DNA from: Candidatus Cloacimonadales bacterium | GTDB lineage: Bacteria; Cloacimonadota; Cloacimonadia; Cloacimonadales; JAFGVF01 | DNA length: 64,000 nucleotides | Direction of reading: 5' to 3' | Assembly (NCBI GenBank): GCA_963667035.1 | Contig: OY762964.1 | Span: 2,688,001 to 2,752,000, forward strand | Shown: in pieces, positions 47,311 through 62,935 of the stretch | Numbering within the stretch: the stretch's first letter is position 1 | Layout: the number at the start of each line of letters is the position of its first letter | Translations under genes and position numbers: made by a program | Notes under the pieces: model-generated | Told to the model about the DNA's origin: nothing | The model's input: only the letters and a program-made list of their open reading frames with translations | Database searches by the model: none

Positions 47311-49755
47311 ATGAAAAAGAAACTCTTAACTCTCGCAATGCTGTTAATCGGAATAATTTCCGTTTGTTCAGCAAAACAACTCAGTGGAACCGTAACTGAT
47401 AAAACTACGGGTAATCCGATAGAAAACGCAATTGTTTCCACTGAACAATCAACAGTTACAACTGATACTAAAGGTCATTTCATAATTGAGACATCAGATA
47501 ATGAAATCAATGTTAAAAGAATGGGCTATGAAGAGCTTGAAGTTGCCGTTAATTCAGATTATCTTAAAATTAAACTGGAAAGAAAATCTGTCGAACTTTC
47601 AGGAGTGAAAGTCTCGACAACTCGTGTAAAGACAGAAACTTCACCTATTACTATCACTAATATTGACCAGGAAGAGATTCTCGAAGTTAGTTATGGACAA
47701 GACATTCCACTTCTTCTTGACGATGTACCAAACTTGCACACATACTCAGAGGCCGGTTCAGCTTTAGGTTACTCTCACATGAAAGTTCGAGGATTTGATG
47801 AGAGGAGAATCGGTATTATGGTTAATGGAATACCTTTCAATGATCCTGAAGACCATTCCGTATACTGGGTTGATATGCCGGACTTGGCAGAAAATGTTGA
47901 AAATATTCAGTTCCAAAAAGGTGTAGGTAATTCTCAATATGGTGTTTCAACTTTTGGTGGTTCACTTAATTTAATGACAAACAGCCTTAACAATCCTTAT
48001 CTTGCTGAGATTAGTTCCAATTACGGAAGTTTCAATACATGGAAGTATAGTGCAAAAATAGCAAAAGACCTTGGAAAAGGTTTTATCTCATCATTACGAT
48101 TCTCACAAATGGCATCTGACGGTTATAGAGATAATACTGCTTCCAAGATGTGGTCATACTTCTATAATCTTTCTTATATAGGTAAAAACTCGGTAACCGA
48201 GTTTAACACTTATGGAGGTAACGAAGTTACTCATGCGGCTTGGTATGCTTCTCCGATAGCTGAATTGAATGATAACCCTCAACATAATCCCAAAACTTAT
48301 GACAATGAAATAGATGATTTTTCTCAACCTCACTATGAGCTTCATAATCGTTGGAGAATAAATGATAAGTTGCTTTGGCAGAACTCAGCCTTTTACATCA
48401 GAGGTAAAGGTTTCTATGAACAGCTTAAGGATGAGGATGATTTATATTATTACTCACTTTCAAGCGATGATAACGACTCTGTTGCAGATGTTGTCAGACA
48501 GAAATGGGTTAAAAAACAGCACTATGGTTTAGTTTCAAACCTCACATGGTCACATCTGATGGGAGAGATTACATTCGGAACTTATCTTGCTAAGTTTGAT
48601 AGCGACCACTGGGGAGAAATTAAGAATGTATCCAATGCTGTAGATGCTGATGGAAATTCATTAGATGTAGATTATAGTGTAGGACAGAAGTATCACCAAT
48701 ACAAAGGTAATAAGGATTACATCACATTCTATGTAAATGAAAACTTTAATCTTAATGAATCCCTTTCTATGGTGGCTAACCTTCATTATCAGGGAATCAA
48801 ATACACATTTGAACAGGAAGAAGTAGGTAACTTCACTGGTGAAAACCTTCATAGTTATGATGTTGACTATGAATTCCTCAATCCGAGATTTGGTTTAAAC
48901 TATAGAGTATCTGAAGATATGAACTTGTATGGTAATGTTTCTTTTGCCGAGAGAGAGCCTGCTGATCAGGAACTCTATAACATCTGGGACGATGCTTCAG
49001 ACCTTGGAACAGCTCCTCTCTTTGAAACAAGCCATGAAGTTGTTGATAGTGAAGGAAATGTTGTGAGAATAGAATGGGAAGATCCTGTTGTAAAACCTGA
49101 AAAGGTTATTAACTATGAGATCGGACAAAGAGTTAATATTGAAGGTTGGAACATCGAAACCGCTATTTTCTGGATGGACTTTGATAAAGAAATCGTTCGT
49201 TACGGTGGTGTAGATTCCGATGGCTATCCTAACATGGGTAATGCCGATAAAACAATCCACAGAGGTGTTGAATTAGCTATTAAGAAAGAATTCTTTAATA
49301 ATTTAGGACTGTCGGCTAACGTAGCATATAATGATAACTATTTCAAGAATTTCAAAGCTTATGACACTAATTGGGATACTTACGAAACATTCGTTGTTGA
49401 CTATTCAGGAAACAAGATTGCTAACTTCCCTGATGTAATTGCCAATGCCAAGATAAGCTATAATTGGAGATGGTTAACCGCAACTTGTGAATATAAGTAT
49501 GTTGGCGAACAGTATCTTGATAATACTCAAAATCCTGATAGAACAATACCTGAATATAGTCTTGTTAATGCAGGGTTGAAATTTAAACTCACTAACATTG
49601 GTTTATTGAAGACAACAAGTATTACATTTAACGTTAATAACTTGTTTGATAAAACTTATTATACAGATGGTTATTATGATGCTTGGGATGGCGGAAATAA
49701 CTACTGGATAGGTTCAGAACGTAACTTTATGATAGGATTTAGAACCGGTATATAA
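47311..49755 (+). CDS. TonB-dependent receptor, probably for thiamine
   Basis: Signal peptide, prealbumin-like domain, plug GQDIP...VRGFD...NGIPFNDPEDH.VYW, NVNNLFD; under a TPP riboswitch. Confidence 0.9.
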   Translation: MKKKLLTLAMLLIGIISVCSAKQLSGTVTDKTTGNPIENAIVSTEQSTVTTDTKGHFIIETSDNEINVKRMGYEELEVAVNSDYLKIKLERKSVELSGVKVSTTRVKTETSPITITNIDQEEILEVSYGQDIPLLLDDVPNLHTYSEAGSALGYSHMKVRGFDERRIGIMVNGIPFNDPEDHSVYWVDMPDLAENVENIQFQKGVGNSQYGVSTFGGSLNLMTNSLNNPYLAEISSNYGSFNTWKYSAKIAKDLGKGFISSLRFSQMASDGYRDNTASKMWSYFYNLSYIGKNSVTEFNTYGGNEVTHAAWYASPIAELNDNPQHNPKTYDNEIDDFSQPHYELHNRWRINDKLLWQNSAFYIRGKGFYEQLKDEDDLYYYSLSSDDNDSVADVVRQKWVKKQHYGLVSNLTWSHLMGEITFGTYLAKFDSDHWGEIKNVSNAVDADGNSLDVDYSVGQKYHQYKGNKDYITFYVNENFNLNESLSMVANLHYQGIKYTFEQEEVGNFTGENLHSYDVDYEFLNPRFGLNYRVSEDMNLYGNVSFAEREPADQELYNIWDDASDLGTAPLFETSHEVVDSEGNVVRIEWEDPVVKPEKVINYEIGQRVNIEGWNIETAIFWMDFDKEIVRYGGVDSDGYPNMGNADKTIHRGVELAIKKEFFNNLGLSANVAYNDNYFKNFKAYDTNWDTYETFVVDYSGNKIANFPDVIANAKISYNWRWLTATCEYKYVGEQYLDNTQNPDRTIPEYSLVNAGLKFKLTNIGLLKTTSITFNVNNLFDKTYYTDGYYDAWDGGNNYWIGSERNFMIGFRTGI

Positions 49756-49764
49756 ATAATTAAT

Positions 49765-49800
49765 AATACCTGTGCCACAATTAAGTGGCACAGGTTATTT
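49765..49800 (+). terminator. Stem-loop between the TBDR and S-component genes
   Basis: ACCTGTGCCAC-aattaa-GTGGCACAGGT, an 11-bp stem with a weak U-tail. Confidence 0.6.
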
Positions 49801-49813
49801 AATAGAGGATACA

Positions 49814-50380
49814 ATGAAAAAACTTAAATTATCCGAGATAATCTTTATTACTGTAGTATCAACAGCTATGGGTGTATTCTGGTGGGGATATACCTTCTTG
49901 TACGATATTGTTTCACCTTTTTTAAAACCTCTGGGAATTGAAAATCTGATGTCCGGTGTTTGGTTAATGGGAGCAGTATTCTTTCCATTTATCATTAGAA
50001 AACCGGGAAGTGCTATTCTTGGAGAAACTGTTGCAGCATTTGTCCAAGGCTTCATTGCTAGATGGGGGATTACCTCAATTCTTTTCGGATTTGGTCAGAG
50101 CGTACTTGTTGAACTGTTTTTCCTCTCCTTAGGATATAAACGTTGGAACAGAGCGGTAATGATGATAGCTGCCATGCTCTCGGCAATAAGCTCATACCTT
50201 GTATCATTGTTTTACGAAAAGTGGTATACCTACTCGGTTGCTTTCAATATTAAACAAATAATATGTTACCTTATTGGGGGTGTTTTGTTTGCGGGAATTC
50301 TTAGTATCTTTGTTGCTAACAGATTAAAGAAGACAGGTATATTAAACCAGTTCGAAATTGTAATGGATGATTTGAAATAA
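49814..50380 (+). CDS. ECF transporter S component (YkoE-like, thiamine or precursor)
   Basis: Six TM segments; G.W.M, IIRKPGSA..GE..AA, Q...ELFF motifs. GAGGA precedes ATG 49814. Confidence 0.8.
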   Translation: MKKLKLSEIIFITVVSTAMGVFWWGYTFLYDIVSPFLKPLGIENLMSGVWLMGAVFFPFIIRKPGSAILGETVAAFVQGFIARWGITSILFGFGQSVLVELFFLSLGYKRWNRAVMMIAAMLSAISSYLVSLFYEKWYTYSVAFNIKQIICYLIGGVLFAGILSIFVANRLKKTGILNQFEIVMDDLK

Positions 50381-54923: not shown

Positions 54924-55478
54924 ATGATAAAAAAGAGTATTTACATAATTGTTGTTATAGCTTTAGCTATTGTAATGATGGCAGCAGACAGTGATAACGA
55001 AGTTAAGAAGCTATTTAGAAAATCAAGAATTAAACAGTGTGGCGGCACTCTGATACAAAAAGAAGACGGATGGTATTTAAAAGCAGATAATAATCAGGAA
55101 CCAATGCTTTATATTGACTCTGCTGATATTGAGAACAACGAGAAAGTGAATTGGGTTAATGGGGCTACAGTAAAATTAGTAGGTCTTGCTCATCAGGAAA
55201 AGCTCTTAGTTACTACTGTCATTACTGAAACTGATACAATATTTGTAAGGGACTCTAAAGGTGATAAATATACGGAAGAAGGTCTTGCTTCAAAGTGGAG
55301 TGTCATTCCTGAAAAATGTATAGGTTGTGGACTCTGTGTAAGATTATGTCCTGTTGATGCAATAACTATGGTTAAAGGCAAAGCTTTGATTGATCAATCA
55401 AAGTGCATTAATTGCGGTAATTGTGCTCATGGTGGAATCAGAGGAAGAGGTTGTCCTACAAGTGCAATTAAGAAATGA
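54924..55478 (+). CDS. Exported protein: N-terminal beta-rich domain plus 2[4Fe-4S] ferredoxin domain (Fd1)
   Basis: Signal peptide MIKKSIYIIVVIALAIVMMA; CIGCGLCVRLCP and CINCGNC-x9-CP. Confidence 0.85.
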   Translation: MIKKSIYIIVVIALAIVMMAADSDNEVKKLFRKSRIKQCGGTLIQKEDGWYLKADNNQEPMLYIDSADIENNEKVNWVNGATVKLVGLAHQEKLLVTTVITETDTIFVRDSKGDKYTEEGLASKWSVIPEKCIGCGLCVRLCPVDAITMVKGKALIDQSKCINCGNCAHGGIRGRGCPTSAIKK

Positions 55479-56466
55479 AATTATCCTATTCATATTAGTA
55501 ACTGTTTTTTTACTATTAGTCGGATGCAACGATTCCATATCCAAACTTTCTGTTGCAAGCAATATTGCACCCGACCCAATATCCGGACTTACAACACTTA
55601 AAGTAAATGACAATTATATTCAAGTTATTTGGGATATACCTATTAGTGATTACTTGGACCATTACATGGTTTATATATGTGAGAATAGCGATGTATTGAC
55701 TTTAACTGATAACTTATATACTGATAAGCTCCTCGGATTTGCAGGAAAGAATAGACAGGGTATCACTATTAGAAATCTGCAAGCATCTACAGAGTATAAA
55801 CTTGGTGTTATTTCTGTTAACAAGTATGGAGCAAATAATGGACTTCAAGATTCAATTGTAGTTACAACTACCGACTTGCATATAAATGATACTGAAGTGC
55901 CACAAACACCGGAGTTAGTTAATATCTCAGCCCATTTAACAAAAGGTATTGATTCCGCAGCTAATACTGAGATTGAAATAGAGTTTACCCCTGGGAATGG
56001 AGAAGAGTTAATTACACCTGATATTAGGTTTTCTCCTATGCCTGCTTTTGCGAACTGGGATTCAGCTTTTCCAATCACTAATTCGGAATTATTTGTTCCT
56101 GAGGTTTTAAATGGAGAGACAGGTGTTATAAGATTTAATTTTCAAGATGCAGCTTGGCCTATACCGTTCCAAATGAATGATTTTGAGTTTATGATATTAC
56201 TTAAAAGCAAAGATGCAGAAAACAACGTATCAGAAAACTCCATAAATACTATGGGTATATTCAAAGTTGAAGTTCAATCAGGCTGTATAAAATGCTGGAA
56301 CTGCATAAATATTTGTCCTGAAAACGCTATTTCTAAATCAAGTTCAAAGGCCGTAATTGATATAACAAAATGCACCAGATGTGGCGATTGTGTGTTGAAA
56401 TGTGCAGATAAAGGTTCTGAAGTAATCTTCTTCAAGACTGAAGAAACCGGAGGCTCCAAATGGTAA
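55462..56466 (+). CDS. Lipoprotein: FN3-like domain(s) plus C-terminal 2[4Fe-4S] ferredoxin domain (Fd2)
   Basis: GTG start after GAGGAAGAGG gives MQLRNEIILFILVTVFLLLVG-C. FN3 hallmarks (W, Y, NL...TEY.L.V.SVN); CIKCWNCINICP and CTRCGDCVLKC. Confidence 0.8.
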   Translation: MQLRNEIILFILVTVFLLLVGCNDSISKLSVASNIAPDPISGLTTLKVNDNYIQVIWDIPISDYLDHYMVYICENSDVLTLTDNLYTDKLLGFAGKNRQGITIRNLQASTEYKLGVISVNKYGANNGLQDSIVVTTTDLHINDTEVPQTPELVNISAHLTKGIDSAANTEIEIEFTPGNGEELITPDIRFSPMPAFANWDSAFPITNSELFVPEVLNGETGVIRFNFQDAAWPIPFQMNDFEFMILLKSKDAENNVSENSINTMGIFKVEVQSGCIKCWNCINICPENAISKSSSKAVIDITKCTRCGDCVLKCADKGSEVIFFKTEETGGSKW

Positions 56467-56711
56467 AGAAACTGGTATTGCTTGGCTTAATACTTATAAC
56501 GATTCTTCTTGCAGTAACTATTGAAGACAAGCGTAGCCCACTGGTTCTCAAGAATAAATGCGTAGGATGTGGAGACTGTATTGAGGCATGTCCGGTTGAA
56601 GCTATTGAGCTTAAAAAAGGTAAAGCTACTATAGACAACCAAATATGTATAAATTGCGGAATATGCTTCAAAACTTGTACATACAGTGCCATCAGGAGTG
56701 AGAATGAATAA
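56460..56711 (+). CDS. Small exported or anchored 2[4Fe-4S] ferredoxin (Fd3)
   Basis: MVKKLVLLGLILITILLA leader; CVGCGDCIEACP and CINCGICFKTC; RBS GGAGG. Confidence 0.85.
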   Translation: MVKKLVLLGLILITILLAVTIEDKRSPLVLKNKCVGCGDCIEACPVEAIELKKGKATIDNQICINCGICFKTCTYSAIRSENE

Positions 56712-56946
56712 GATAGTTATCGTTCTTGTCATAATGGTTGTTGCACTTGCTATCGGTTGTGATAAAGTTACAAAGCCCGAATATAACGTTGAGAATTCAA
56801 CATGTAATGCTTGTGGTAACTGCATTGATGTATGTCCTAACGATGCTATAGAGTTTGATAAAAATGGAAAAGCAATTATAGACCAAACTAAATGTATTCA
56901 ATGTGCCAAGTGCATTCCGGTTTGCCCTCAAGGAGCGATATACTAA
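56704..56946 (+). CDS. Small lipoprotein 2[4Fe-4S] ferredoxin (Fd4)
   Basis: ATG 56704 after AGGAG; MNKIVIVLVIMVVALAIG-C lipobox; CNACGNCIDVCP and CIQCAKCIPVCP. Confidence 0.85.
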   Translation: MNKIVIVLVIMVVALAIGCDKVTKPEYNVENSTCNACGNCIDVCPNDAIEFDKNGKAIIDQTKCIQCAKCIPVCPQGAIY

Positions 56947-58154
56947 TGAAATACTTAACTATAATTATACTTTTGTTTGTCATTAGTTCCGCTTTTTCTT
57001 TTGACCTTAAAAATCTCAATGATTTCTCGATAGGATACTATAGTGTTGATGGAAAGAACTTAATGAATTCTAGGGAGAAGCTCTTCACGGACATATCTTT
57101 TAATAGCTATTTCGCCGGTGGTATTGAGCTTGACCTTTTGATCTCAGAAAATGAATATAAACAAAAGAATTTCTATGTTTATGATAGATTTAAATCATAT
57201 CTAACTTGGAACTATGAGAGCACAACTCTCTCTACTTCTTTCAGTAACACTCTTTTTGATAATGCTAAAACCAATGAGATAATTTTAACAGGTTTGTTCG
57301 ATCCGGTAATAAAACCTGTTTCAAAAAACAGTCTTACTTTTGCAGCTACACATAATCAGTGGAATTTTAACATTGATGGAGCAATCAGGTATAGGAACCT
57401 TAATTATGATTATCATCTATCTGAGGAAACAGAGCATGAGAACGACCTATTTATCGATTTAACGCTTTCAAGAGATATTATTGAGGGATTAGGAGCCTTT
57501 ACAACAATATATTATAAGAATGATTTGAATGATATACCTAATTCGGAGATTCCGGATAACTTCGAGATTAACGACCCGAGTAAATATTATAATGAACTTA
57601 CACTAGGGGGAGGAGTATACTGGAAAAAACGTTTTAGTAATAATCAAGTGATTAAAGTATCAACAGCATATCTACATAGAGACGGTGAAACAATTCCTGA
57701 TTATCTAACTCACTATTTTATAACGGATGTACGCTACCCATATTCATTATCACCACTTCTATATGGTTATATCTCAGGTATTAGCAGAGGATGTTATAAT
57801 GAACAGGACGATAAGTTTTACAGAGTTTCCAATCTTATTAGAGCTCAATTAAAGTATTCACTTAATCCTTTTGATTCTCGGGCTTATATTTGTGCCGGTT
57901 TTAAATACAATCCGGAGAACAAAACAGATAGATATTACGGGGAAGTTTCGTATCCGATTGATAGATTCTTAACTCTAAGGGTTGCCGATTATATCTCTCC
58001 TAAATATTACAATAACGTTGTTACCGGAATAGAATACTCTTTTGCAAAATACAATTCGATATATTTGGAGAACACTTATTCTATCGTCAAAAGTGATGTA
58101 CTCGCATTAGCTGATAACAATGAGTTAAGATTAGGTACAAGGATAGCATTTTAA
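56946..58154 (+). CDS. Putative outer-membrane beta-barrel protein
   Basis: ATG 56946 overlaps the Fd4 stop (TAATG). Signal peptide ending SAFS; many amphipathic Tyr/Phe-rich strands; C-terminal ELRLGTRIAF. Confidence 0.7.
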   Translation: MKYLTIIILLFVISSAFSFDLKNLNDFSIGYYSVDGKNLMNSREKLFTDISFNSYFAGGIELDLLISENEYKQKNFYVYDRFKSYLTWNYESTTLSTSFSNTLFDNAKTNEIILTGLFDPVIKPVSKNSLTFAATHNQWNFNIDGAIRYRNLNYDYHLSEETEHENDLFIDLTLSRDIIEGLGAFTTIYYKNDLNDIPNSEIPDNFEINDPSKYYNELTLGGGVYWKKRFSNNQVIKVSTAYLHRDGETIPDYLTHYFITDVRYPYSLSPLLYGYISGISRGCYNEQDDKFYRVSNLIRAQLKYSLNPFDSRAYICAGFKYNPENKTDRYYGEVSYPIDRFLTLRVADYISPKYYNNVVTGIEYSFAKYNSIYLENTYSIVKSDVLALADNNELRLGTRIAF

Positions 58155-59125
58155 TGTTTAAAACTTTCACGGAAGGATTTATTCTGGGACTAACAACCGG
58201 TACTGTGTGCTTGGTTAGCTGCACTCCCATATATCTACCTTTTATAATTTCAGAAAAACGTTCTATCAGTAAAAACTTTCTGAAAGTAATGGAAATCTCT
58301 GCAGGTAGATTCTTTTCTTACTTGTCATTTGGTGCCTTAGCAGGATGGTTAGGTGGAAATATTGCTACGATAGATAGAAATCTGTTCACGGGAATCGCCT
58401 ATATTCTTTTAACGGTTTTTATGCTTCTATCGTTCTTTAGATTAACTAGAAAAGAGAAGAGTTGCCATATACCCAAATTTGTTAATGTAACTAGAAGTGC
58501 ATTTTTATTAGGCATATTTACCGGGATTAACTTTTGTCCTTCCTTTTTAATTGCATTATCGAAAGCAATTGACTTGGCAGGTCCTTTGAGTGGAATCTTG
58601 TTATTCTTTGGTTTCTTTGTCGGCACTTCACTTTTCCTAATTCCTTTAGCATTTACCGGATTTCTTTCAAAGATGAAGCTTATGAAAGTAATTGCAAGAT
58701 ATGCTTCAATTGCAATAGCTCTCTACTTCTTATACTCAGGTATCCATAAGATAAAGGATTTTATTGTTTCATCTCAAGCCAGAATTGTAGATCCGATATC
58801 AGTTGAATACAAGTTAACTTTGTTTACTGATGATCCTAATTCTGAATTTTATAAAGTACTTTCAGATTCATTAATAGCAATTAAATCTAATCAGTTCACA
58901 TTTGTAAGTACTGATAAACTAGGAATATCAACTTTAGCATCTGTTCAGAAAGGGACAATTCTATTGATAGCTCCGAATTTGGTAAACGATACAAACATCA
59001 AAGCTATTAAAAATACTGACCATTATATCATGAATCCACAGCATTCACCAGCCGGCGTGATTAATTTCATGAGGAATTATAGTATTAAGGTTGGAAAGAA
59101 CCAATTCTTAGAATGGGAATTTTAA
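58154..59125 (+). CDS. DsbD_2 / CcdA-like six-TM protein with C-terminal soluble domain
   Basis: CLVSC in TM1 (Cys19/23), GRFFSY, GINFCP (Cys128), F..GT; TAATG coupling. Confidence 0.75.
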   Translation: MFKTFTEGFILGLTTGTVCLVSCTPIYLPFIISEKRSISKNFLKVMEISAGRFFSYLSFGALAGWLGGNIATIDRNLFTGIAYILLTVFMLLSFFRLTRKEKSCHIPKFVNVTRSAFLLGIFTGINFCPSFLIALSKAIDLAGPLSGILLFFGFFVGTSLFLIPLAFTGFLSKMKLMKVIARYASIAIALYFLYSGIHKIKDFIVSSQARIVDPISVEYKLTLFTDDPNSEFYKVLSDSLIAIKSNQFTFVSTDKLGISTLASVQKGTILLIAPNLVNDTNIKAIKNTDHYIMNPQHSPAGVINFMRNYSIKVGKNQFLEWEF

Positions 59126-59406: not shown

Positions 59407-61008
59407 ATGCGCAAGAGCTTACTAATTGCCGTAACTCTCTTAATGCTACTTATTAGTAGCCTGTTAGCTCAGGCTAGCCCTGAAGTTGAGTTCGAGTTCC
59501 AAAGGGGAGATGGAACCGGAACACTGTTAATGAAATTCACTATTCCTGAACACTATTATCAATCATATGTTGTTGGCGATGATATGCCAATGTTCTATAT
59601 GGAGGCAAGTGCTGAAGGTTTTGAGTTTGAACCAGCTAACTATCCTAATCCTGACAATGTTAAAATCGGAGAGACAGTTAAGTATAAACATGAAGCAGTA
59701 TTATCTCAAACTTTCACTTATAATCCAGAGACAAAAGATGGTAAGATAAAAATTGCTTACGGTTATCAGTTATGTGAAGCAGGAGCTGCTTGCGAGTTAC
59801 CTATAGATGACGAAGTAACTCTTTCTTTTGCAACCGGAAAACCTATACAAAACGAAGAAGTTGTAATGGAAGAAACTATCTCTGAAGGAGATGCCGAAGA
59901 AAATCAAAAAATCATTGAAGCTTTCACAAAACTAAATGATAGATATGTTGTAAAAGGCTCAAAAACAGGATTTATTAAAGCGGAAAAGTTTATTGCTTTC
60001 CTCGAAAATCCAAGTGCAATCGGTGATTCAGGCTCAGAAGTTTCTGATAAGAAAGAAGGATTCGAAGGCAAAAGCATCTGGCTTATACTAATATCCATTT
60101 TGATCGGTGGACTTTTAATGAATCTTACACCATGTGTACTGCCAATGATACCGATAACAGTTGCTATAATCGGAGCAGGTTCACAAGGGCAATCAAAAGG
60201 CAAAGGCATAATGCTGGGGACTAGTTACGGACTCGGAATGGCAATCGCCTATGGAGCTTTAGGATTAATAGCAGCGTTAACCGGTTCTGCTTTTGGACAA
60301 CTTAACTCTTCATGGATCTTTAATGCAGTTATTGCATTAATCTTTATATTGTTAGCTCTAGCCATGTTTGATGTATTTGCAATAGACTTTTCAAAATATC
60401 AGAATCCTAACAAGAGGGCTCAACAGCGTGGTAAAGTAGCAGGAGTTTTTGTAATGGGTATCTTTGCTGCTCTATTAGCAGGAGCATGTGTTGCCCCAAT
60501 CCTCATTGCTGTTATTATTTATGCCGGGAATTTATACAGTCAGGGTAATGTTCTCGGATTGGCTCTTCCTTTCCTTCTTGGTATTGGAATGGCACTACCT
60601 TGGCCATTCTTAGGTGGAGGTATGTCTATTCTTCCGAAACCAGGTAACTGGATGAAGTGGGTAAAGATTATATTTGGTGTTTTCATACTATTTATGGCAT
60701 ATAAATATAGCTCTAATGCTTACCATATCCTCAAGCCCAAACCGGTTGTTGGAACAATATCTCAAATTGAGACAGCTATAAAAGAAAAGAAACCCATATT
60801 CTTAGATTTTACAGCGTCCTGGTGTAGTTCATGTAAAGAAATGGATAGGTCAACATTCAAAGATGATGGTGTTATTGAGACTCTTAAAAAATATGAGTTT
60901 ATTAAATACTATGCCGAAAAGCCAAGTAACTCACCAGCAAAGGAAGTTATGAATTTATTTAGTGTTAAAGGTCTTCCAACCTATATTATTTTAGAGCCTA
61001 GGGAATAG
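59407..61008 (+). CDS. dsbD: Thiol:disulfide interchange protein DsbD (three-domain)
   Basis: Signal peptide; N-domain CEAGAAC; TM domain LTPCVLPMIP and ACVAP; thioredoxin domain FTASWCSSC. Confidence 0.9.
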   Translation: MRKSLLIAVTLLMLLISSLLAQASPEVEFEFQRGDGTGTLLMKFTIPEHYYQSYVVGDDMPMFYMEASAEGFEFEPANYPNPDNVKIGETVKYKHEAVLSQTFTYNPETKDGKIKIAYGYQLCEAGAACELPIDDEVTLSFATGKPIQNEEVVMEETISEGDAEENQKIIEAFTKLNDRYVVKGSKTGFIKAEKFIAFLENPSAIGDSGSEVSDKKEGFEGKSIWLILISILIGGLLMNLTPCVLPMIPITVAIIGAGSQGQSKGKGIMLGTSYGLGMAIAYGALGLIAALTGSAFGQLNSSWIFNAVIALIFILLALAMFDVFAIDFSKYQNPNKRAQQRGKVAGVFVMGIFAALLAGACVAPILIAVIIYAGNLYSQGNVLGLALPFLLGIGMALPWPFLGGGMSILPKPGNWMKWVKIIFGVFILFMAYKYSSNAYHILKPKPVVGTISQIETAIKEKKPIFLDFTASWCSSCKEMDRSTFKDDGVIETLKKYEFIKYYAEKPSNSPAKEVMNLFSVKGLPTYIILEPRE

Positions 61009-61010
61009 AT

Positions 61011-62402
61011 ATGAAGAGATTTTCAATTATAATTGCTTTATTACTTACAATTAGTGCTTGCGAGAGATTTACAAAACCGGAACCGGAACCTACAATAACT
61101 GAAAAGGTTACCGATTACTTTGATAATTACGTTGAATCAGCTTTAAATGATATGACAGTTGACGATGTAGGTAGTATTATGGCTCTATACAGCGATGATT
61201 ACCTTAATAATGGTCTTGAAAAAACAGATATTAAACAATCATTCTTGGATTATGCTAGTCAGAATAACATTAATAACTTAACCATTTCATTTACTATTGA
61301 GAATGAAGATTCACTAAAAGTTAGCTGGTCTTTCAATAATAGTAAAAACATACCCCAGATAGATTACTTAATTCCTGATTCAACAAGTAAGTACAAGTTC
61401 TATGGAAATCAAGTATCCTCGATGCAAGATATGATATATACTTTCTTTGAAGAGGAAATCTTACCTGCAATAGAACAAATTTCAGAGTCTGATGTAAGTA
61501 GTATAATGGCATTTTATTGTGATGACTACTTAAACAATGGATCTGTAAAATCAGATGTTGAGCAAGAATATATTGATTTTTTGAGTAATGGTAATGTAGT
61601 CCAATTCTCAATGCATGTAACAATTGTTAATGAAGAGCAGATGAAAGTTAGCTGGTCTTTTTGCCAAACCGAAACGATGAAGAGAATTGACTACCTGATG
61701 GAGAATGGTGATAGTTTCTTATTCTATGGGGACCAACAACAACTTCCACCAACAGAAACAACTAAAGCTTTCATTGAAGTTCTCACAGCAACTTGGTGCC
61801 CTAACTGTCCCGAGTTAGAGCACAAGATAGAAGAAATGAAAGAAACTTATGGAAATGATTTGTTCTACGTTGAATATCACTATAACGATAACCTTAGTGG
61901 TGATTTTAGTGACATCCAAAGCTGGTATAACATATATAGTGCTCCTACCGGAGTATTGCAAGGAACCAACATATTTGTTGGCTCGGAAAGTACTACGCTT
62001 AACCAGTACAATAATATTATCAGTAGCATAACCGCAACAAATGCTGATATTGTACTTAATAATTTAGAATACACTCATGAAGGTGATAAATATAGTTTCA
62101 GCATAGATATTGATAATCCCGGTATGGTTGATACAGAAGATTTGTATTTAAGATATCTTATTGTTGAAGATACATCTTCATCACTTAACAATGCAGGGAA
62201 TCCATGCAAAAATGTAATGTTGGAACAGAATAAAATAGCATTATCCGATGTTGATTTTTATGGAACTTATGAGTTTGATCATACATTGTTAAATACTTTA
62301 CCGGAAGATGCTAAGATAATTATATTTGTTCAGACTATGCCTGAAACATTTAATGAATCAACATGTAAAATCCATAACGTAATGGAAGCAGACCTAAACT
62401 AA
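61011..62402 (+). CDS. Lipoprotein with duplicated N-terminal domain and thioredoxin-like/Omp28-like C-terminal region
   Basis: Lipobox ISAC; two ~100-aa repeats; EVLTATWCPNCP, VEYH, AP; C-terminal Ig-like part with IIIFVQ. Confidence 0.75.
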   Translation: MKRFSIIIALLLTISACERFTKPEPEPTITEKVTDYFDNYVESALNDMTVDDVGSIMALYSDDYLNNGLEKTDIKQSFLDYASQNNINNLTISFTIENEDSLKVSWSFNNSKNIPQIDYLIPDSTSKYKFYGNQVSSMQDMIYTFFEEEILPAIEQISESDVSSIMAFYCDDYLNNGSVKSDVEQEYIDFLSNGNVVQFSMHVTIVNEEQMKVSWSFCQTETMKRIDYLMENGDSFLFYGDQQQLPPTETTKAFIEVLTATWCPNCPELEHKIEEMKETYGNDLFYVEYHYNDNLSGDFSDIQSWYNIYSAPTGVLQGTNIFVGSESTTLNQYNNIISSITATNADIVLNNLEYTHEGDKYSFSIDIDNPGMVDTEDLYLRYLIVEDTSSSLNNAGNPCKNVMLEQNKIALSDVDFYGTYEFDHTLLNTLPEDAKIIIFVQTMPETFNESTCKIHNVMEADLN

Positions 62403-62413
62403 TAGGAGTAATA

Positions 62414-62935
62414 ATGAAACATAGACTTATATTAATAGCAATCGTACTTTTACTTGCCGGTTCTCTTTTTGCAGAGAAGAAGTTTGCAGATTTCAAGCTC
62501 GAAGATGTTAAAGGTAATAAAGTGTCATTAGACACTTTACTCAAAGATGGTCCTATCGTAGTTGATTTTTGGGCAAGTTGGTGTGATCCATGTAAAAAAG
62601 CTCTTCCGCATCTTGATGAGATTGATAAGAAATATGACGGTATAAAAGTTGTAGCAATCTCAATAGACTCTCCAAGAAAAATGACCCGAGCAAAAGCCTT
62701 TGTTAAAAAGAATAAATATGACTTTATTACTCTGTTTGATAGTGATCAGATGATTTCAAAAAACATGGGTGTAAAGAATATACCACATACATTTATAGTT
62801 GATAAAGATGGTACTGTTGTGTTTGAGTTTATGTCAGGTAAACCCGGAGGGGAGAAGATACTTGAAGCTGAAATCCAGAAACTTTTAGGTATTGAGACTT
62901 CTACCGAAGAAGTAGAAGAAGAAGTGGTTGAATAG
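62414..62935 (+). CDS. TlpA/ResA-family thiol-disulfide oxidoreductase
   Basis: Signal peptide; DFKLED..G, VDFWASWCDPC, IP.TFIVDK.G. Confidence 0.9.
   Translation: MKHRLILIAIVLLLAGSLFAEKKFADFKLEDVKGNKVSLDTLLKDGPIVVDFWASWCDPCKKALPHLDEIDKKYDGIKVVAISIDSPRKMTRAKAFVKKNKYDFITLFDSDQMISKNMGVKNIPHTFIVDKDGTVVFEFMSGKPGGEKILEAEIQKLLGIETSTEEVEEEVVE

Follow-up and report, generated by a model that had tools for sequence, protein, structure and literature searches.

Sec-Exported Ferredoxin-Type Proteins Encoded beside an Outer-Membrane Barrel in Cloacimonadota, a Candidate Porin–Ferredoxin Conduit

Ferredoxin-type proteins with export leaders are encoded next to a putative outer-membrane barrel in Candidatus Cloacimonadales bacterium (GCA_963667035.1), an anaerobe not yet in culture. 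The DNA analyzed, hereafter the window, is a 64,000-nucleotide stretch of contig OY762964.1 (positions 2,688,001 to 2,752,000, forward strand), and the source genome (G000) is a single closed contig with 98.2% completeness. Six genes of the window, all on the + strand, form an operon. The first, orf1 (54924..55478, family A), encodes a Sec/signal peptidase I (SPI) leader (MIKKS), an N-terminal domain of about 100 aa that matched no Pfam family above cut-off, and a C-terminal eight-cysteine ferredoxin domain. With a GTG start (MQLRNE), orf2 (55462..56466, family B) encodes lipobox Cys22, an FN3 domain, and a C-terminal eight-cysteine ferredoxin domain. Two short genes complete the ferredoxin set. 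The orf3 product (56460..56711, family D) joins a Sec/SPI leader (MVKKL) to a single 2[4Fe-4S]-type ferredoxin domain, and orf4 (56704..56946, family E) encodes a lipoprotein (MNKI, lipobox Cys19) with one such domain. The orf4 stop codon overlaps the start of the barrel gene (56946..58154), whose 402 aa product has a Sec leader, 20 predicted strands, no plug, and a C-terminal Phe. The barrel stop is overlapped in turn by the start of a gene for a DsbD_2/CcdA-like inner-membrane protein (58154..59125) with four invariant Cys and a C-terminal alpha/beta domain.

The initial annotation had reported four ferredoxin-type genes without twin-arginine translocation (Tat) motifs at 54924 to 56946, and our analysis confirmed this observation. 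All four products matched Fer4-type Pfam models above cut-off, and a Shine–Dalgarno-like motif precedes each start chosen. Leader classes were assigned with our own heuristics, not with SignalP. True starts lying upstream could have added a twin-arginine motif. When the four frames were walked back to the previous stop, no in-frame start gained one; the only upstream RR pair is in the orf3 frame, with no start codon ahead of it. The described basic N-terminus followed by a hydrophobic stretch held in part: the uncharged stretch is 16–17 residues in all four leaders, but the n-region of orf2 has a net charge of 0. For comparison, the median uncharged stretch among 113 type IX-tailed proteins from this genome is 19 residues (interquartile range 16–21), and the RnfB anchor, unlike the four leaders, has one of 30. 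A lipobox Cys closes the leader of both orf2 and orf4.

The GTG start of orf2 is conserved in a same-genus genome (G001). A frameshift at the orf1/orf2 junction, where an ATG overlaps the orf1 stop, was ruled out on this conservation and on the lack of any indel in two read-run contigs from one sample (X1 and X3), which showed 0 differences and 0 gaps against the stretch and are possibly the assembly’s own source. As a control for chance, Sec-like leaders were counted among the ferredoxin-motif open reading frames (ORFs) of the genome with an ATG-only test. They occurred in 4 of 35, namely orf1, orf3, orf4, and a type IX-tailed ferredoxin at C1:491164-491982; orf2 was missed because of its GTG start.

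The genome content was consistent with Sec export. The initial annotation had proposed looking for tatAC, and neither TatC nor TatA gave a match in the source genome, with 11 of 14 controls positive. Its 431 leader-bearing ORFs contained no strict Tat motif. TatC occurred in 3 of the 151 phylum genomes and, in tables read by hand, in 0 of the 78 that carry the barrel. SecD/F, Lgt, LspA, SprA, and PorV were all found in the source genome, which is non-Bacteroidota; above cut-off it has a single SprA gene and five of the PorV family. Tat-exported Fe–S proteins include NrfC and the small subunits of hydrogenases. Tat is the route for folded, cofactor-bearing proteins, and NapG is Tat-dependent (PMC5449189, excerpt). 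Because the cell lacks Tat, its lipobox proteins must use Sec. From the leaders and the genome content, Sec export of the ferredoxin-type proteins is highly probable.

The initial annotation missed that the four genes are the front half of a conserved ferredoxin–ferredoxin–barrel cassette. Picked from DsbD_2 and barrel matches, 71 loci were fetched, and 62 of them contained a barrel. In 60 of these 62, the gene immediately upstream of the barrel belongs to family E; the two exceptions without an adjoining E (L101 and L210) are both partial barrels. Family D is next upstream of E in 59/62 within the distance limit, and a 60th (L091) falls just beyond it. The D-E-barrel order also held in 19/19 loci left out of profile building (L191-L209). 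Because this gene order is fixed across loci, we take D-E-barrel as the core.

Selection with the Sec-like leader test yielded 133 leader-bearing ferredoxins from 48 loci, with 0 strict Tat motifs and 2 loose RR pairs. Twelve ORFs lacking such a leader were set aside as fragments, misread frames, two unrelated enzymes, or missed starts. Four NapH-like proteins were excluded from the exported-ferredoxin count, and L105 and L121 were missed by the leader-search pattern. Some family B lipoproteins measure up to 1720 aa, their FN3 stalk flanked by a ferredoxin on either side; the 1720-aa protein (L099:2190-7352) has 13 FN3-like matches between its two ferredoxin domains, and stalk length differs widely among genomes. 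Type IX-tailed ferredoxins (family C) occur in 10/48 loci, with tail scores against TIGR04183 of 41.6 and 42.7 bits (cut-off 23). The fifth exported ferredoxin of the source genome (C1:491164-491982, L211), far from the operon, consists of a leader, an eight-cysteine domain, CarboxypepD_reg, and a type IX tail (PF18962, 31.8 bits, cut-off 27). A Sec leader and a type A C-terminal domain mark these proteins as type IX cargo, and of the secretion machinery the search covered SprA and PorV, both of which the genome encodes. A crude motif count gave about 108 type IX-tailed secreted proteins in the source genome.

The export topology could be read differently. The leaders might be uncleaved anchors with the ferredoxin facing the cytoplasm, or small holo-domains might leave folded through an unrecognised non-Tat route, so that no loading outside would be needed. 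The neutral n-region of orf2 would agree with this. We nevertheless consider it very unlikely, and a cytoplasm-facing arrangement, raised by the initial annotation, fared poorly when checked computationally. The lipobox Cys is invariant in 41/41 family E sequences, and the n-side charge equals or exceeds the c-side charge in 129/133 leaders, a count partly owed to selection. Because relatives carry type IX tails or long FN3 stalks, a cytoplasm-facing role is disfavoured; these parts and the fixed link to the barrel make little sense in the cytoplasm.

The ferredoxin domains satisfy the 2[4Fe-4S] pattern, with eight Cys in two CxxCxxCxxxC motifs and the ferredoxin-fold residues. In family A, seven of the eight Cys columns are filled in 19/19 sequences and the remaining column in 17/19. 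All eight are invariant in family D (40 sequences). Family E keeps seven of its eight ligand Cys invariant and the eighth in at least 90% (41 sequences). Ligand Cys and ferredoxin-fold residues are near-invariant at a mean identity of 47–51%. The best solved relatives are true [4Fe-4S] proteins, namely MvhB, FwdF, RnfB, and small ferredoxins. DsbB was not found in the source genome. Because the ligand pattern is kept in five separate families, DsbB is missing, and the closest solved relatives are [4Fe-4S] proteins, the exported domains probably bind two [4Fe-4S] clusters each.

The initial annotation had also allowed for a repurposed fold. In that case the domain would lack an Fe–S cluster, and its eight Cys would coordinate some other metal, such as Zn or Cu, or pair up as disulfides. 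Cofactor-loaded Fe–S proteins normally leave folded by Tat (PMC5449189, excerpt), and the assembly genes found here are a cytoplasmic IscS/IscU-type pair without SufBD. The motifs also deviate in places, with a 9-residue spacer in the second and last motif of orf1 (family A) and no final Pro in family D. These deviations remove no ligands, however, and all eight Cys, the cluster spacing, and the surrounding fold residues are kept in five separate exported families in a cell without DsbB for making disulfides. The disulfide or other-metal alternative is therefore less likely, and we rate it as quite improbable.

If the domains hold clusters, these would have been gained after export, since Tat is the route for folded proteins. 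Proteins destined for type IX secretion are taken through the inner membrane by Sec and reach their fold in the periplasm (PMC11285876, excerpt). The Fe–S assembly genes of the source genome comprise one IscU-type gene adjoining an IscS-like gene (the latter read by eye), both of cytoplasmic type, and SufBD was not found. Judged from these sequences, we infer that cluster insertion outside the cytoplasm would be the likeliest consequence. No loader-like gene was common to all carriers, and loading could occur by chemical self-assembly instead of a dedicated pathway. In water, Fe–S clusters self-assemble on cysteine from iron and sulfide (PMC8505563, excerpt). Thiol-templated self-assembly would most likely be the loading route, and we prefer it; Cys-rich membrane proteins would perhaps help.

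The barrel was modeled with AlphaFold2 from a 41-row alignment as a 20-strand, plug-less barrel with a mean pLDDT of 89.7. It matched no Pfam or NCBIfam family. When 1.84 billion representatives were searched with its profile, 125 relatives came back, a small family, and fold searches returned generic barrels. In ESM Atlas the matches were unnamed barrels whose recognition fell short of the threshold used there, and one of ten distant barrels carried an informative taxonomic name, Cloacimonadota. The barrel was found in 78/151 phylum genomes.

The D-E-barrel layout resembles the porin–cytochrome conduits of Geobacter (Pcc, OmaB-OmbB-OmcB) and Shewanella (MtrCAB), in which genes for an exported redox protein, a redox lipoprotein, and a plug-less barrel adjoin (PMC13591261 and PMC11434368, excerpts). 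The 20 strands predicted here fall within the 18–22 predicted for Pcc porins (PMC4245776, excerpt). The redox modules differ, being eight-cysteine ferredoxin domains instead of multihaem cytochromes. No CxxCH occurred in the 431 leader-bearing ORFs of the source genome, and no ORF had two. The cytochrome c assembly gene (Cytochrom_C_asm) was not found in that genome; it was present in 2/151 phylum genomes, with a match in 1/78 barrel genomes. The barrel itself has no sequence family match.

On this analogy, D-E-barrel may be a porin–ferredoxin electron conduit, an iron–sulfur counterpart of porin–cytochrome complexes with clusters loaded after export, and we regard this reading as evenly poised. 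The apoproteins would pass SecYEG unfolded, and E would be lipidated by Lgt/LspA. Exported thiols would stay reduced, since the cell lacks DsbB, and ferrous iron and sulfide would supply the [4Fe-4S] clusters, which would be loaded outside the cytoplasm. E, and probably D too, would sit in or on the empty barrel, so that as many as four clusters would span the outer membrane in a chain. Two stacked ferredoxin domains would place four clusters over roughly the membrane width. In the periplasm, family A ferredoxins would relay electrons from a NapH-like inner-membrane polyferredoxin, and at the surface the FN3-stalked lipoproteins and type IX-tailed ferredoxins would lengthen the chain. A fermenter could in this way exchange electrons, in either direction, with partners or minerals. 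For electron transfer across the outer membrane itself, we see the chances as even.

The operon might have another function. Exported apo-ferredoxins might, at the cell surface, capture iron and sulfur or reduce Fe(III) and pass the product inward through the barrel and the four-Cys membrane protein, making the operon a system of iron or Fe–S acquisition or storage. Metal-uptake receptors head the list of structural matches to the barrel. In addition, Fur-like and FeoB-like genes follow the operon at one locus (L022:9710-12431, G030), and a heavy-metal P-type ATPase gene precedes it in one genus (L033:1215-3668, g2), all read by eye. Such neighbors change from locus to locus, however, a plug is missing from the barrel, and its top matches are simply the commonest large barrels. 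We therefore consider iron uptake rather unlikely. Against MtrB, the barrel scored Z 16.7 with a root-mean-square deviation of 5.7 over 363 residues, and TonB-dependent receptors tied with it at Z up to 17.5.

The CcdA-like protein matched DsbD_2 with 71.7 bits (cut-off 24.9), and its model has six membrane helices and an alpha/beta domain. Its invariant Cys are C19, C23, C104, and C128 in 46 sequences. Foldseek gave a weak match to CcdA 5vkv (E 0.16) and none at E ≤ 0.001; the other fold search gave nothing clear (best Z 8.9). CcdA and DsbD are defined by a single redox Cys pair that relays to thioredoxin partners. The protein studied here shares with them the DsbD_2 match and the six helices. 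In contrast to the single redox Cys pairs of CcdA/DsbD (PMC8238504, excerpt), it has four invariant Cys and adds an alpha/beta domain at its C-terminus, and no gene for a thioredoxin partner is conserved beside it. A DsbD_2 gene occurs in 59/151 phylum genomes (2 of them weak), and the CcdA-like gene lies directly downstream of the barrel in 41/62 barrel loci, which makes it frequent, not obligatory. We rejected it as a universal cluster loader, since it was not found in 27/78 barrel genomes.

Further downstream, at positions 59407-62935 of the window, a gene for a DsbD fusion lies with genes for a thioredoxin-like lipoprotein (WCPNC) and for a TlpA-like protein (WCDPC); a DUF6029 protein is encoded next, from 62945. 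These genes are a separate thiol-reducing cluster in a genome without DsbB. They were rejected as a part of the system because they are not adjacent to the operon in G001.

A further possibility is an envelope redox relay. Clusters would be real and loaded outside, and low-potential electrons would serve periplasmic or surface reactions, such as maintaining thiols in reduced form, reduction of a substrate or a metal chelate, or redox sensing, with no current across the outer membrane; the barrel would be a scaffold or a lipoprotein export channel. The CcdA-like gene adjoining the barrel in two-thirds of the loci fits this possibility, as do the DsbD/thioredoxin/TlpA cluster following in the window and the many type IX-tailed proteins secreted by the cell. 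That cluster, however, is not adjacent in the same-genus genome, and ferredoxins at both ends of stalks with up to 13 FN3 matches, together with type IX tails, fit a reach beyond the surface better than housekeeping. A relay of this kind is unlikely in our judgment.

NapH-like genes are the second candidate for an inner-membrane partner. They occur in 118/151 phylum genomes and, in tables read by hand, in 73/78 barrel genomes, and they lie within 12/48 loci. The family keeps H35, C38, C44, and C143 invariant, and by the positive-inside rule its His/Cys loops are predicted to lie outside. The copy in the source genome (C1:1992789-1993571, L212) is a stand-alone membrane polyferredoxin that keeps all four residues. 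A second type of locus (L029, L032, L036, L037, and L040) pairs a NapH-like gene with a leader-bearing ferredoxin, with no barrel nearby, and extends to genomes in which no barrel was matched, G037 and G017 among them. For flavinylation systems, it has been proposed that a NapH-like Fe–S membrane protein moves electrons through the membrane and hands them to extracytosolic carriers (PMC8238504, excerpt). The system described here shares such a membrane protein with the flavinylation-linked ones, but its outer carriers are ferredoxin domains and it includes an outer-membrane barrel. No FMN-binding domain was matched in the operon proteins scanned.

Several observations weigh against the porin–ferredoxin conduit. 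None of the sequence relatives of the barrel has a known function, and the barrel fold favors neither an electron porin nor a transporter, because MtrB ties with TonB-dependent receptors. With no barrel match in 73/151 phylum genomes, the cassette is patchy. From their distribution, the inner-membrane partners are not specific to it. Besides being missed in the 27 barrel genomes, the CcdA-like gene stands apart from any exported ferredoxin in 7/48 loci. NapH-like genes also occur in 45 barrel-less genomes, and the one in the source genome lies about 750 kb from the operon. At the loci examined, no gene for a terminal donor or acceptor is linked to the cassette.

Across 38 loci, identity-matrix correlations were 0.71 for barrel and E, 0.37 for barrel and D, and 0.28 for D and E; these values are confounded by kinship and serve as a hint only. 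The tree computed from 69 short ferredoxin domains was poorly supported and gave nothing firm on origin. Scanning genome contigs for relatives returned one full-length match, the rest being generic ferredoxin domains. Two divergent metagenome copies (L186 and L188) hold the same kinds of parts, with a different order in L188 and a barrel unrecognised by the profile; L186 also encodes a 508-aa NapH-type polyferredoxin with 31 Cys. A similar ferredoxin cluster was found through ESM Atlas in Fermentibacterota at 0.88, as a lead only.

Other genes were recorded alongside the operon. A DUF362-like protein (by eye) in G001 (L021:15982-17046) has two ferredoxin motifs and an apparent Sec leader, and its look-alike in the source genome (C1:731682-732740) has no leader. 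Upstream of the operon, positions 47311-50380 of the window encode a TonB-dependent receptor and then an ECF-type permease (ABC_cobalt family), possibly for thiamine or cobalamin uptake.

Like Tat-exported Fe–S proteins (NapG and the polytopic polyferredoxins), the proteins described here would place 2[4Fe-4S]-type domains outside the cytoplasm, with a NapH-like partner at a quarter of the loci, but they have neither a twin-arginine motif nor Tat machinery, and a molybdo- or hydrogenase partner for catalysis is missing. They share two CxxCxxCxxxC(P) motifs and fold residues with clostridial-type 2[4Fe-4S] ferredoxins and polyferredoxins; what sets them apart is a leader of Sec or lipoprotein type, together with FN3 stalks and type IX tails. 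As judged from sequence, the candidate working mode is conduit-like, yet the system falls outside the porin–cytochrome class by its lack of haem motifs and maturation genes, and outside the Tat class by leader and machinery.

A full-text literature search, with most subscription journals outside its scope, turned up no account of Sec-exported ferredoxins and none of an operon of this kind. In a ferredoxin survey of more than 7,000 organisms, the words “signal” and “periplasm” are absent from the paper (PMC7039249). The available parts of two Cloacimonadota genome papers (PMC8542988 and PMC8359207) make no mention of the operon, and their supplements may list the genes as annotated.

By the working rule, Fe–S proteins are loaded in the cytoplasm and leave folded via Tat. 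Sec and lipoprotein leaders on eight-cysteine ferredoxins in Tat-less genomes imply that clusters form outside the cytoplasm or else that the fold serves another purpose, and both outcomes are testable on 60-residue proteins. The bolder proposal, to which we give somewhat less than an even chance, is that Cloacimonadota and some other lineages have a complete haem-free [4Fe-4S] wire from cytoplasm to surface, with all outer clusters assembled after Sec export. It would consist of the NapH-like protein, one ferredoxin in the periplasm, a pair of them within the 20-strand barrel, and, at the surface, ferredoxins that are stalked or secreted by the type IX route. If true, it would represent an Fe–S biogenesis route outside the cytoplasm and a new mechanism of interspecies or mineral electron transfer. 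If the conduit exists, cytochrome-free fermenters would gain a candidate extracellular electron route that searches for haem motifs would overlook.

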